Shown piece after piece: positions 38,353 through 57,484 of a stretch of DNA of 64,000 nt. Under the pieces are notes generated by a model. The model saw only the letters and a list, made by a program, of their open reading frames with translations. It was not told the origin of the DNA and did not search any database. Position numbers and translations under genes: made by a program. The stretch spans positions 6,528,001 to 6,592,000 of the forward strand of contig OZ242214.1 of assembly GCA_965206595.1 (NCBI GenBank), written 5' to 3'. Position 1 is the stretch's first letter. Every line of letters starts with the position of its first letter. The stretch comes from Candidatus Latescibacterota bacterium. GTDB lineage: Bacteria; Latescibacterota; UBA2968; UBA8231.

Positions 38353-39408
38353 CTACTGGAACTTCAGGTAATGCGGCGGCGACAGGCCGACGGCGCGGCC
38401 GACGATGCAGGCCGCCTCCACGCCGGCCTGCTGCAGGGCTTCGACCGCGGCCGCGGCCTGGGCCCCGGGAACCGCGGCGAACAGGCCGCCGCTGGTCTGC
38501 GGGTCGACCAGGATCTCGCCCTGCCTGTTCGGCAGCTCCTTCTCGTACAGGGCGGCTTCCCCGACCTGCGCCCGGTTCCCGGCGTTGGCCCCGGTGGTGA
38601 CGCCGCGCTCGTACATCTCCAGCGCTTCCGGCAGTACCGGCACCGAGTCGACTTCGATTTCGATGGTAACCCCGGAGCCTTTGGCCATCTCGAGGGCGTG
38701 CCCGGCGAGCCCGAAGCCGGTGATGTCGGTCGCCGCGTGCACGTCGAACCGGGCCAGGGTCTCGGCCGCGGCCCTGTTGAGATCGGTCAGCACTGCCAGG
38801 GTCCGCTCCAGGGCTTCCCGGGAAAGCAGGCCTTTCAGGTTGGCGTTGAAGATCACGCCGCTGCCGATCGGCTTGGTCAGGATCAGCGCGTCCCCGGGAC
38901 GGGCCCCGGCGTTGCGCCAGTACCTGTCAGGGTGCACGACCCCGGTGACCGAGAGCCCGAACTTCGGCTCGTCGTCGTTCGTGGTGTGGCCCCCGGCCAG
39001 CACCGCCCCCGCCTCGGTGATCTTGCTCAGAGCCCCTTCGACGATGCCGTGCAGCACCTCGGGGCCGAGGTCCTCCTCGGGAAACCCGATCAGGTTGAGG
39101 CAGGCCACCGGCCGCCCCCCCATGGCGTAGACGTCGCTCAGGGAGTTGGCGGCGCCGATCTGGCCGAAGGTGAACGGGTCGTCGACCGGCGGCGTGATGA
39201 AGTCCGCGGTGACGACGATGGCGGTGTCGTCGCCGAGGCGGTAGACGCCGGCGTCGTCGCTGGTCTCGAATCCGACCAGCAGGTTCGGGTCCGACTTGCG
39301 CGGCAGGCCGGCCAACAGTTTCTCGAGCCCGACCGGGCTCGCCTTGGCCGCTCACCCGCAGGTCTTGGCGAGACTCGTCAGGGTCTTCTCTTTTGATTGC
39401 AGCGCCAT
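38353..39408 (-). CDS. selD: Selenide, water dikinase (selenophosphate synthetase, SelD/SenC), selenocysteine-containing
   Basis: ATG at 39408 gives MALQSKEKTLTSLAKTCG-UGA(39354-39352)-AAKASP..., in frame with DDAGV, DFITP, ANSLSDVYAMGG, GGHT, TDITGFGL and DPQTSGGL. 351 aa with read-through. Confidence 0.93.
39324..39341 (-). promoter_or_regulatory. Bacterial SECIS-like hairpin of selD
   Basis: mRNA UGA-GCGGCCAAGG-CGAGCCC-GGUC-GGGCUCG: a 7-bp stem with a G-initiated loop 17 nt after the UGA. Confidence 0.75.
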
Positions 39409-53659: not shown

Positions 53660-54492
53660 TCGACCGGCTTCTCGGCATCGACCGCCGCATCATCTTCGCC
53701 GCCGTCTTCCTCGGGGTCGCCATACCCCTGCTGACCGATCTGCAGTTCCCGGTCAAACCCAGGAAACAGGTGACGGCGGTGTTCGACGAGATCGAAAAAG
53801 TCGCGGGTAAAGAAGACCCCCTCGTCCTGCTCTCCTTTACCTACGGAGCCAGCACCGAACCGGAAATGCAGCCGATGGCCAAGGCCCTGCTGCGTCACCT
53901 CTTCAGCCGCGACGTCGCCGTCGTCGCCGTCTGCCTGTGGCCGGAAGCGCCCGGTCTCGCCCAGCTGGCCCTCGAGGAGACCGCGGCGGAGTTCGCAAAG
54001 ACCTACGGCGAGGATTACGCCTTCATGGGGTACAAGCCCGGCACCTACAGCGTCATCATCAACATGGGTCAGGATTTCGCCGACGCCTTCCCCAAGGACA
54101 ACTGGGGGACCGCCACCTCCGAGGTGCCGCTGACCGCCGGCGTCGCCGGTCTCTCCGACTTCGACCTGGTGATCGACCTGGCGGCCGGGGATTCGATCGA
54201 GTTCTGGTGGCTGCCGTTCGGGCAGGAGAGGCACAACCTCGCCTTCGCCGCGGGCTGCACCGCGGTGATGGCCCCCGATCTCTACCCGTTCCTGCAGTCG
54301 GGGCAGATGCGCGGCCTCATCGGTGGGCTCGTCGGCGCCGCCGAATACGAAAAGCTGATCGGCCATCCGGGTGGAGCGACCGCGGGAATGAGCCCCCAGT
54401 CGGTCACCCACCTGATCATCGTCTTCTTCATCCTGGTCGGGAACGCCGCCTATTTCGCGGCTAGGCACCGGCAGCGGAGGCGGCCGGAATGA
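53656..54492 (+). CDS. Conserved hypothetical membrane-anchored alpha/beta protein (GlmL-like operon)
   Basis: N- and C-terminal TM helices. E.QP, YGEDYAFMGYKPG and GCTAVMAP.LYPF.QSGQ..G..GG..GAAEYE motifs. Confidence 0.72.
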   Translation: MIDRLLGIDRRIIFAAVFLGVAIPLLTDLQFPVKPRKQVTAVFDEIEKVAGKEDPLVLLSFTYGASTEPEMQPMAKALLRHLFSRDVAVVAVCLWPEAPGLAQLALEETAAEFAKTYGEDYAFMGYKPGTYSVIINMGQDFADAFPKDNWGTATSEVPLTAGVAGLSDFDLVIDLAAGDSIEFWWLPFGQERHNLAFAAGCTAVMAPDLYPFLQSGQMRGLIGGLVGAAEYEKLIGHPGGATAGMSPQSVTHLIIVFFILVGNAAYFAARHRQRRRPE

Positions 54493-55214
54493 ATCGCGAT
54501 TCCATCCTGTTCCTCGCCGTTCTCCTGTTCTTCGCCGCGGCCAACGCCTACCTGTTCGCCGCCGGCAAGCTCAGCCCCGACTGGACCGGCTTCGGGATAA
54601 TCGTCGCCGCCGGCCTGACCCTGGCGCTCTACAGCTTCCTCTACCGCGACAACCCCTTCTTCAAGCTCGCCGAGCACGTCTTCGTCGGCGTCGCCGCGGC
54701 CTACGTGTTCGGCCAGACCTGGTACCCGACCATCTACGGCGAGGTGATCGACAAGCTCACCGGGCTGGGTGAAGCCGGCGCCTGGGAGGGAAACGCCTGG
54801 CTCGTGCTGTTCCCGACCGCGCTCGGGATCCTGATGCTGACCCGGTTCAGCACCCGCATCGGCTGGACCAGCCGCATCGCCTTCGGGTTCATCTTCGGCC
54901 TGGGGGCCGGGTTCACGATCCCGGCCTACATCTCGACGTTCATCCTGAAACAGGTGGAACCGACCCTGCAGCCGATCACCCTGTCCTGGGCCGGGCTCGA
55001 CCTGTTCATCATCCTCGTCGGCGTCGTTTCGGTGCTGGTCTACTTCTTCTTCTCCGTCGAGCACCGCGGCGCCGTCGGCATGGTCTCGAAGCTGGGGATC
55101 TGGGTGCTGATGATCTCTTTCGGCGCCTCCTTCGGGTACACGATCATGGCGCGGCTGTCGCTGCTTATCGGGCGTGTGAGGTTCCTTCTCGGCGACTGGC
55201 TGAACCTGATGTAG
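54489..55214 (+). CDS. Conserved hypothetical integral membrane protein (GlmL-like operon)
   Basis: Multiple TM helices. SFLYRDNPFFKLAEHVFVG, YFFFS and FGASFGYTIMAR motifs. Confidence 0.75.
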   Translation: MNRDSILFLAVLLFFAAANAYLFAAGKLSPDWTGFGIIVAAGLTLALYSFLYRDNPFFKLAEHVFVGVAAAYVFGQTWYPTIYGEVIDKLTGLGEAGAWEGNAWLVLFPTALGILMLTRFSTRIGWTSRIAFGFIFGLGAGFTIPAYISTFILKQVEPTLQPITLSWAGLDLFIILVGVVSVLVYFFFSVEHRGAVGMVSKLGIWVLMISFGASFGYTIMARLSLLIGRVRFLLGDWLNLM

Positions 55215-56130: not shown

Positions 56131-57081
56131 GTGGCAGCGCCCGAACTCTCCCGCCCTTTCGCGAGCACATCCAGGGTCGTTGTCGGCCGCGACGCAGGCC
56201 TTCCCGTCGAGATGGCCTGCGCCGACAACGGCAACCTTTCCGCGGACTACACGCTGCTGCTGCTGCACGGCCTCTTCGACCACAAGGGTACCTGGGAGCT
56301 GATGGAGCCCTTTCTCGGCGAGCGTTTCAGAACGGTCGCCGTCGACCTCGTCGGCTTCGGGGAGAGCAGCAGGCCGCGCTTCCGGTCCCTGCCCGAGAGC
56401 GAGCGGTACTGCCTGGACCGGCTGGCTGCCTACGTCGGAGAGCTCATCCGCGCTCTCGAGCTCGACCGCCTCGTCCTCGTCGGCAACTCCCTCGGCGGGG
56501 CCATCGCCCTGCGGCTTGCCTGTGCCGATCCGCAGGAGCGTCCCTGGGCGGCCGGGCTGGACCTGCGCGGACTTGTGCTGATCTCCGCTGTCGGGTACCC
56601 GCAGCCGCTGCCGGGATTCGTGCCGCTCCTCGCTGGAAAACCGGGTGCCCTTTTGTTGAACCCCACCCTGCAGCGGCTGGCGGTGGCCAGCGGCCTTGTG
56701 CGGCGGTTCGCCGCATCGACCTATTACCGGATCTTTTACGATCCCCGCCGGATCCCTGAGCGGCTGGTCGACCGGGCGGTCGAGTACTTCGCCATGCCCG
56801 GCACCCCGTTCGCGTACCGGATGACGGTGCGCAACCTGACTCCGCCCGACATCGACACCTTTCCGGGCAAGTACGCCGAAATGTCGCTGCCCGCCCTGAT
56901 CCTCTGGGGACAGCAGGACCGCATCGTGCCCCCCCTCAACGCGCTCCGCTTCGAAACGGATCTGGCGGCGGCGAAACTGCACGTTTTCGACGACTGCGGG
57001 CACGCCCCGCACCTCGAATACCCGGAGGGAACGGCAGTCGCGATCCGCGACTGGATCCGCAACAGCGTGAATACGGACTGA
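56131..57081 (+). CDS. Alpha/beta hydrolase
   Basis: LLHG, DLVGFGES, GNSLGG, WGQQD and CGHAPHLE motifs. Confidence 0.9.
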   Translation: MAAPELSRPFASTSRVVVGRDAGLPVEMACADNGNLSADYTLLLLHGLFDHKGTWELMEPFLGERFRTVAVDLVGFGESSRPRFRSLPESERYCLDRLAAYVGELIRALELDRLVLVGNSLGGAIALRLACADPQERPWAAGLDLRGLVLISAVGYPQPLPGFVPLLAGKPGALLLNPTLQRLAVASGLVRRFAASTYYRIFYDPRRIPERLVDRAVEYFAMPGTPFAYRMTVRNLTPPDIDTFPGKYAEMSLPALILWGQQDRIVPPLNALRFETDLAAAKLHVFDDCGHAPHLEYPEGTAVAIRDWIRNSVNTD

Positions 57082-57088
57082 AGCACTC

Positions 57089-57484
57089 GTGACCAGCAGC
57101 CAAGACCTGTGCAACATCGAGGAGGACGGCAGGCGCTTCCGTCTCTTCTTCGGAATCCTGCTCTGCTGCTTCGCCCTCGGCTTCACCGCCCTGGTCACCG
57201 TGACCGACAGCCCCCTGCCGCTGCGCGCTGTCGTCTTCCTGCCGCTCTGGGTGGGCATCCTGTGCCTGCTGCAGGCCCACGGTTCGACCTGAGTGCTTCT
57301 CGCGGCGCGTGGTGCACGCGCTACCGCGGGAGGAACCGAGCCGATTCCGGACCGGGAGCTGATCGATAGGCTGCGTCGAAAAGCGGGCCGCCTCCATTTG
57401 CAGGCAATGCTGGCGGCCTTCGCGGCGACCATCCTGCTGTTGCTCGCCACCCTGTTCATTGCTTTGCGCCTGCCCGCGCTCTGA
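57089..57484 (+). CDS. Small membrane protein, candidate selenoprotein (UGA at 57290-57292)
   Basis: Two track ORFs in the same frame are separated only by TGA. The joined 131-aa product reads ...LLQAHGST-U-VLLAARG... and has 3 hydrophobic helices. A SECIS-like hairpin follows the TGA. Confidence 0.65.
57304..57322 (+). promoter_or_regulatory. Bacterial SECIS-like hairpin
   Basis: UGA-GUGCUUCUCGC-GGCGCGU-GGUGC-ACGCGCU. GCGCGU pairs with ACGCGC plus a G-U pair, and the G-rich loop begins 18 nt after the UGA. Confidence 0.6.

Follow-up and report, generated by a model that had tools for sequence, protein, structure and literature searches.

The 64,000-nt window examined here (positions 6,528,001 to 6,592,000 of contig OZ242214.1 of a Candidatus Latescibacterota bacterium) very probably carries, at its positions 57089-57484, a single UGA-split gene coding for a 131-residue integral membrane selenoprotein. 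The selenoprotein gene as such is held to be genuine with high confidence. Its two halves lie in one frame, the UGA falls in an alignment column occupied by selenocysteine (Sec) or cysteine (Cys), the sequence past the UGA is conserved and under purifying selection, the hairpin downstream of the codon covaries, and the machinery for Sec decoding is encoded in the same genome. According to the mechanism proposed, the ribosome would decode UGA 57290-57292 as Sec, with a SelB-binding hairpin, the bacterial Sec insertion sequence (bSECIS), placed within the coding sequence 12-13 nt downstream of the UGA. This hairpin would be built from the codons of an A-A-R-G-x-R peptide, whose invariant Gly codon, GGN, would be the GG of the apical loop. 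The resulting protein would present a basic N-terminal segment, two transmembrane helices, the Sec residue ending helix 2, then a beta-hairpin within a basic loop, and finally transmembrane helix 3; by the positive-inside rule its N-terminus, Sec and basic loop would be oriented toward the cytoplasm. At that membrane face, the Cys or Sec might engage with a soluble rhodanese-type partner in an exchange of sulfur or selenium.

A single reading frame and its relatives

The window contains two open reading frames (ORFs), 57089-57292 (67 residues plus TGA) and 57293-57484 (63 residues plus TGA), which share a frame and have TGA as their sole separator. Translation through TGA 57290-57292 yields the 131-residue product, with Sec (U) as residue 68, and both the ORF list and the translation confirm the coherent joined protein put forward in an earlier interpretation of this DNA, hereafter the sequence-only reading. 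The GTG start of the gene is placed identically in both genus-mates, and in the window it is separated by 7 nt from the stop codon of the hydrolase gene that precedes it. Since the gene itself ends in TGA, this codon also serves as a stop in the organism, and a genome-wide reassignment of TGA was rejected because TGA ends both the upstream gene and this one. The coordinates of all features are given in Table 1.

Table 1. Features of the selenoprotein gene, its hairpin and associated genes in the window
Feature	Position	Strand	Description	Basis
Alpha/beta-hydrolase gene	56131..57081	+		Pfam Abhydrolase_1, E 1.1e-27
Codons 1-67	57089..57289	+	GTG start; N-I-x-x-D-G-R-R-F-R motif; transmembrane helices 1 and 2	ORF list, sequence, model
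In-frame UGA, predicted Sec, residue 68	57290..57292	+		Alignment column Cys or TGA
Codons 69-131	57293..57481	+	Short helix, beta-hairpin, amphipathic helix leading into transmembrane helix 3	Model; conserved in Cys and Sec forms
Terminal TGA stop	57482..57484	+		Sequence, translation
bSECIS upper stem-loop	57304..57322	+	8 bp including one G-U; loop GUG 57312-57314 closed by G:C (G-GUG-C)
Extended hairpin, window genome	57296..57333	+	Lower stem 57296-57305 pairs with 57324-57333	Minimum free energy (MFE) structures
selD (selenophosphate synthetase)	38458..39381	-	One internal TGA at 39352-39354	TIGR00476, 367.8 bits, over cut-off

Searched in six frames, 60 related genomes yielded the gene in 19 cases (one weak match, at E 0.009, was apparently spurious and was left out). 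TGA occupied the same codon in six of these 19 relatives, as in the window genome, and the remainder had TGC or TGT. In alignment A1 (21 rows), the U/C column was invariant, being composed of seven TGA and 14 Cys codons, and the invariant columns were N9, R18, U/C68, V69 and G75. Moreover, a survey of the phylum found the family in 28 of 168 genomes, eight with one internal TGA and 20 without any internal stop, and the TGA-bearing genomes spanned at least five genera. A profile search of 1.84 billion representatives matched at least 1,826 proteins (50%-identity clusters) at E <= 0.001, 505 of them at E <= 1e-10, and among the 150 best representatives 143 have Cys in the Sec/Cys column. Opposite the UGA, homologs therefore carry Cys rather than Trp, Arg or a variable residue, in agreement with the sequence-only reading. 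Among the exceptions observed, the column, elsewhere an invariant Cys, holds S, D or G in P0014, P0036, P0045, P0066 and P0094. A word-index protein search with the joined protein returned only five matches, and the profile search was required to bring the family into view; in the ESM Atlas it corresponds to unnamed clusters from both bacteria and archaea, and one Cys form comes from Melghirimyces thermohalophilus.

The database entries P0004, P0005, P0108 and P0115 (67-74 residues) terminate exactly at the TGA and are thus gene-caller truncations, as had been predicted from the split ORFs. These entries illustrate the simplest alternative, in which translation ends at the UGA, the 67-residue two-helix product is real, and the downstream ORF is separate or untranslated. 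Gene callers treat the gene in this way, and TGA is a normal stop in the genome, including at the end of this very gene; we nevertheless consider such termination very improbable. The Cys forms always constitute one ORF and their halves never occur separately; independent halves had been named in the sequence-only reading as an observation that would refute it. Inspection by eye of the sequence upstream of 57293 (CACGGTTCGACCTGA), with no dedicated scan for ribosome-binding sites, disclosed neither an AGGAGG-like site nor a start context, as the sequence-only reading had also stated for the second half. In addition, purifying selection has kept the downstream half of the TGA forms conserved, and a covarying hairpin occupies the place expected for a SECIS.

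The selection on the downstream half was assessed among the TGA-bearing genomes, in which the ratio of non-synonymous to synonymous substitution rates (dN/dS) was 0.19-0.53 over the 52 codons after the UGA vs 0.17-0.68 over the 55 codons before it; values this similar indicate that the downstream half is maintained as protein. Sec forms were also numerous in metagenomes. A DNA pattern equivalent to Q-A-x3-T-TGA-V-x-L-A-A-x-G, with 21 fixed positions, matched at least 120 stretches in a metagenome collection, and all 80 loci retrieved encode the family (family hidden Markov model, HMM, E <= 1e-3), with an intact C-terminal half that is conserved past the TGA. The HMM matches of these 80 loci cover the whole length of the family; the loci form 10 clusters at 50% identity, and their contigs range from 51 to 76% G+C.

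The recurrence of TGA-bearing homologs in eight genomes and in 80 of 80 metagenome loci, homologs of a kind that the sequence-only reading had proposed to check, also bears on the explanation that the in-frame stop is a nonsense mutation or a sequencing error in a pseudogene. Nothing speaks for this explanation except the stop itself. TGA at 57290-57292 was unchanged in the contigs of four sequencing runs, each belonging to a different study and one of them perhaps the run from which the assembly was made, and no TGC or TGG was seen in them; together with the same-codon TGA in so many loci and a dN/dS below 1 past the stop, these observations leave it practically no probability, and it is regarded as refuted by recurrence and conservation. 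The only variant in these contigs was G for A at 57103, a synonymous change (CAA to CAG) in codon 5 that was present in three runs, belonging to three other studies, and that points to a near-identical strain in other samples.

Selenocysteine machinery and the hairpin

The window genome encodes selA (539 bits), selB (338 bits) and selD (368 bits) and contains tRNA-Sec, and its selD itself carries an in-frame UGA, in agreement with the Sec decoding presumed in the sequence-only reading. The hairpin of selD, with an apical loop GGUC starting 17 nt past its UGA, is an in-organism example of a SECIS. Seven of the 61 relatives are TGA-bearing, and in each of the seven selA scores above the cut-off, as expected if TGA forms occur only together with selA.

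A GC-rich hairpin had been described as starting 12 nt past the UGA of the membrane protein gene, and a stem-loop of 8 bp is indeed found there. Its 38-nt core folds with -17.0 kcal/mol and the extended structure 57290-57338 with -26.6 kcal/mol. In a 2026 review (PMC13188914), the bSECIS model is defined by a loop of 3-9 nt, a stem of 4-16 bp, a G in the first two loop positions, a UGA-to-loop distance of 16-37 nt and an MFE <= -7.5 kcal/mol, and the window hairpin (8 bp, 3-nt loop, 18-19 nt, -17.0 kcal/mol) lies within these constraints as published there. The geometry had further been equated with that of the selD hairpin, a likeness that roughly holds, the loop being reached 18-19 nt past the UGA here as against 17 nt in selD. 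Rfam models at their gathering thresholds gave no matches over the whole window.

The comparative data were drawn from alignment A4, composed of 76 unique segments of TGA plus 45 nt. The lower stem is not conserved family-wide, and RNAalifold predicts the upper stem only, as a 5-bp stem of columns 16-20 and 26-30 that starts 12 nt past the UGA and encloses a loop N-G-G-N-N. These columns correspond to 57305-57309 and 57315-57319 in the window, and the register in the window's genus is offset by 2 nt. The family consensus has a UGA-to-loop distance of 17 nt and a consensus energy of -7.48, whereas the distance in the window is 18-19 nt. Covariation of the stem, proposed earlier as a check on this hairpin, is supported in A4. 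Pair 20-26 occurs as GC in 32 segments, GU in 22, UA in 15 and CG in four, and pair 18-28 as GC in 67 and AU in three; both-side changes were found in three of six pairs, amounting to 27 cells. Paired cells reached 88.9%, compared with 79.9% in shuffles, the covariation score was attained by none of 500 shuffles, and all slid registers scored lower. Two of the covariations are non-synonymous on one or both sides: CGC to CTC (Arg to Leu) was paired with GCG to GAG (Ala to Glu), and GCG to GCA (synonymous) with CGC to TGC (Arg to Cys). Non-synonymous covariation of the former type shows RNA structure shaping the protein sequence.

Similarly, of 75 unique Sec forms, 71 have G as the third base of codon +8, although among them this codon specifies 10 different residues and the background frequency of G at third positions is 0.36, vs eight of 16 Cys forms. 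When folds were compared with those of synonymous recodings, the mean z was -0.99 for Sec forms (n=75) and 0.02 for Cys forms (n=16; Mann-Whitney p 0.015). The family thus represents a clear example of a SECIS written into a conserved peptide, whose invariant Gly codon supplies the GG of the loop.

Several observations weigh against Sec insertion at this UGA or reduce the force of the evidence for it. The co-occurrence with selA is nearly uninformative because 55 of the 61 relatives carry this gene, so that the seven of seven quoted above discriminate only weakly. The window hairpin taken alone is not significant (z = -1.33; 22 of 200 shuffles were equally stable), that is, its fold is ordinary for a GC-rich sequence, and only through the comparative data does it become significant. 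Those data, in turn, look more significant in the shuffle and rank tests than they are, since the sequences are related and were gathered by the 21-position pattern; the SECIS columns discussed lie outside the fixed positions of that pattern. The potential to form the stem follows in part from the conserved A-A-R-G-x-R peptide encoded in GC-rich codons. Moreover, the Cys forms L013-L016 and L065, all of one genus, retain the CGCGC-loop-GCGCG hairpin of the Sec forms. In these genes it may be what is left of a SECIS where Sec has recently given way to Cys, or it may simply arise from the A-A-R-G-x-R-E peptide. Finally, the incorporation of selenium is itself something that we infer.

The last point is also what lends some weight to a reading of the UGA by a near-cognate or suppressor tRNA, which would insert Trp, Cys, Arg or Gly instead of Sec at residue 68, where the identity of the inserted residue is deduced. 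Against such decoding, the homologs' column is Cys, in the classic Sec/Cys pairing, the hairpin fits the bSECIS model, the genome has the full Sec machinery, and TGA terminates ordinary genes in this organism; it is accordingly given only a very small probability. Decoding of the UGA as Sec is the reading followed below.

Structure, topology and conserved residues of the protein

The joined protein was modelled with AlphaFold2 from a 21-row alignment, with a mean predicted local distance difference test (pLDDT) score of 92.2 and a predicted template-modelling (pTM) score of 0.84. The model has helices at residues 12-38, 43-65 and 69-73, a beta-hairpin at 76-85 and a helix at 89-121, which matches the layout of two transmembrane helices, a U-containing motif and a third helix that had been proposed from the sequence. 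Basic residues are concentrated in the N-terminal segment (R15, R16 and R18) and in the loop 66-101, with eight Arg or Lys, and the 39-46 loop and the C-terminal tail have one charge each. Under the positive-inside rule, this charge distribution suggests that the N-terminus, U68 and the basic hairpin loop are on the cytoplasmic side.

Residues conserved family-wide are N9, G11, R18, G22, R46, F50, P52, Q62, A63, T67, C/U68, V69, A72, G75, G82, D88 and T114. The N-terminal Cys pointed out in the sequence-only reading is present in the window protein as C8, but it is not conserved in the family: among the 150 best representatives, profile column 7 has Cys as its top residue in only 24, and Cys is found at column 6 in 12. 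The Cys/Sec pair that had been postulated on this basis fails for the same reason, and a C8-U68 redox pair was rejected. A second Cys nine residues further on (C-x8-C) occurs in 28 of the 150 best representatives.

No structural relative in the Protein Data Bank (PDB) was found by Foldseek with the model as query (none at E <= 0.001); VIA-align against 48,161 chains returned generic helical bundles, with a best Z of 6.9, and a PDB sequence search with the A1 profile gave a single chance match at E 1.7. A homodimer prediction, made with the Cys-form alignment A5, had a score of 0.01 and is evidence neither for nor against dimerization. It was also observed that the Cys forms P0092, P0114, P0146, P0152 and P0154 have a Cys/His-rich N-terminal extension of about 60 residues, whose motif, C-P-x-C-G ... 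H-x3-H ... C-x2-C, is zinc-ribbon-like and has no significant Pfam family.

Comparison with known selenoproteins and membrane domains

Neither Pfam nor NCBIfam (June 2026) gave a match near cut-off for the window protein or for 10 diverse representatives, and neither did Pfam for the 21 rows of A1. The 2026 review assigns a domain identifier to every one of the 119 families or subfamilies of prokaryotic selenoproteins that it lists (PMC13188914). By Pfam and NCBIfam models, none of these 119 corresponds to the family, the sequences of GOS_A, OS_HP1 and OS_HP2 being outside this comparison; a match of the family to GOS_A, OS_HP1, OS_HP2 or Table S2 of BSepDB is possible. BSepDB is described as compiled from earlier-reported families, and the nine new families of deep-Sep bear other domains or NCBIfam identifiers. 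The family was likewise not found described in the full-text literature compared, which included PMC12013277, PMC13326102, PMC1976440 and PMC2398784, with Haft & Tolstoy 2025 outside the comparison. The novelty suspected in the sequence-only reading thus agrees with the absence of the family from Pfam, NCBIfam and the 2026 list, within the limits of these sources. The phenomenon is textbook; what is new is the family with its membrane nature, together with the double-selenoprotein fusion described below. The family is a large one, with mostly Cys forms, for which no Pfam, NCBIfam or literature name was found.

The gene resembles selD of the window and E. coli fdhF in several respects, namely an in-frame UGA aligned with the Cys of homologs, a hairpin that follows directly and has G-G/U in its small apical loop, 17-19 nt past the UGA, and a dependence on selA, selB, selC and selD, all present in the window genome. 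The product differs in being a small polytopic membrane protein outside the 119 families of the catalogue. Most characterized selenoproteins have a thioredoxin-like fold according to the review (PMC13188914), and few entries of its catalogue are membrane proteins. Because gene callers split the Sec forms, as the fragments of 67-74 residues in protein collections illustrate, the selenoproteomes of Latescibacterota and of many soil and sediment organisms are under-counted. The Sec/Cys pair, which marks a chemically active residue, also provides a first functional handle on a large unannotated family of small membrane proteins.

Among membrane domains, a likeness was noted to the YgaP-like transmembrane domain (DUF2892, PF11127), which is likewise small and membrane-embedded, begins with the motif N-x-G-x-x-[DE]-R-x-x-R-x-x-x-G, and continues with two transmembrane helices and a Q-[AS] motif followed by a conserved Cys. 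Fusions with rhodanese are known on both sides, for DUF2892 in L031 and L033 and for the family of the window protein, there together with DedA, in a single lineage. Unlike DUF2892, this family adds a beta-hairpin and a third transmembrane helix, and true DUF2892 genes sit at other loci in the related genomes. The Pfam gathering cut-off of DUF2892 (25.3 bits) was not reached, three of the 21 members of A1 matching weakly with a best E of 0.029, and no DUF2892 match at E <= 0.001 was found at the family loci of 61 genomes. The likeness is weak, and homology of the family with DUF2892 is a possibility.

A second likeness was found to the C-terminal membrane domain of fungal Rax1 (PF27892 RAX1_C). 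When the Atlas model of P0003, a Cys homolog, was compared with a cluster of fungal RGS/RAX1_C proteins, the template-modelling score was 0.82 over 122 residues. Both sides of this comparison are predicted models, and three-helix bundles can match by arrangement alone; it may be taken as a lead only. The Pfam search gave no match to PF27892, the presence of this model in the searched copy being uncertain.

Gene neighbourhood, fusions and possible function

The selenoprotein gene is probably co-transcribed and translationally coupled with the alpha/beta-hydrolase gene directly upstream. A hydrolase homolog occupies this position at 14 of 23 unique genome loci, counting Sec and Cys forms, vs one of 68 metagenome loci. 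The hydrolase is thus a lineage-specific neighbour. Neighbours differ between lineages, and examination by eye of the sequences around the family loci suggested lineage-specific synteny only, with alpha/beta hydrolase, Rieske-like, CBS, YajQ-like and MsrB-like genes.

A long extension after helix 3 was present in 14 of the 80 metagenome loci, all of one lineage. Where it is read through, this extension encodes two domains. The first is VTT/DedA (E 2.3e-18), and the second is a rhodanese whose motif L-Y-C-S-U contains another in-frame TGA. The best NCBIfam match of this rhodanese was NF041203 (79 bits vs a cut-off of 115); NF041203 (rhodanese_LYCAU), listed as 'form 3, CxU' in the 2026 catalogue, is a C-terminal fusion partner and not a relative of the window protein. 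The fusion observed at L138:2878-4242, and also in L072, L086, L094, L096, L102, L122 and L139, has about 455 residues and two in-frame TGAs, corresponding to U69 in the family domain and U405 in the rhodanese. It is an apparent double selenoprotein, an architecture that was not found described. The window gene itself has neither a rhodanese domain nor a rhodanese neighbour.

The DedA/rhodanese fusion and the weak likeness to YgaP suggest that the protein contributes a membrane thiol or selenol to a sulfur or selenium relay. On these grounds, the invariant Cys/Sec might be a nucleophile at the membrane face, engaged in thiol/selenol chemistry with a rhodanese-type partner (a persulfide/perselenide relay or related redox), a proposal that is made tentatively and with less than even confidence. 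A more specific version, in which the gene would be the Sec form of a founding member of a large unnamed superfamily of small membrane proteins of bacteria and archaea, and the family a distant three-helix relative of YgaP/DUF2892, with the Cys/Sec as the membrane end of a rhodanese-type persulfide/perselenide relay, is considered rather unlikely. If this version were true, the family would represent an unrecognized route by which cells deliver sulfur or selenium to the membrane or pass it across, and the fusion of the domain with DedA and a U-containing rhodanese would be the complete machine in one chain.

Several results count against a relay function. Clustering of neighbouring ORFs at 91 loci revealed no partner conserved across lineages, the DedA-rhodanese fusion is confined to one lineage, and the structure searches disclosed no solved fold like that of the protein. 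Alignment of profiles by hhalign against DUF2892 gave a probability of 0.43% with 21 vs 12 rows, and of 22.6% (E 9e-4, Cys on Cys, 66 columns) with 224 vs 12 rows.

In the main competing interpretation of the function, the Cys/Sec would bind a soft metal or metalloid (Hg, Cu, As or Se) for transport or sensing, rather than participate in a sulfur relay. Among the membrane selenoproteins of the catalogue are an E1-E2 ATPase, a Cu/Zn efflux transporter and a putative mercuric transport protein (PMC13188914), and the C-x8-C arrangement and the zinc-ribbon-like N-terminal segment of some members would suit such a role. The invariant Cys is single, though, neighbour clustering showed no recurring metal-resistance genes beside the family loci, and the sole domain fusions seen were those to DedA with rhodanese and to the zinc-ribbon-like segment, so that metal binding is judged unlikely. 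The metal- or selenium-handling function advanced in the sequence-only reading accordingly stays speculation, unsupported by these results, and a thiol/selenol nucleophile at the membrane face is the function tentatively retained.

Elsewhere in the window, a hydrophobic ORF of 241 residues, without a Pfam match at E <= 0.001, was observed on the forward strand at 54489-55214 (+), upstream of an aldo/keto reductase gene.

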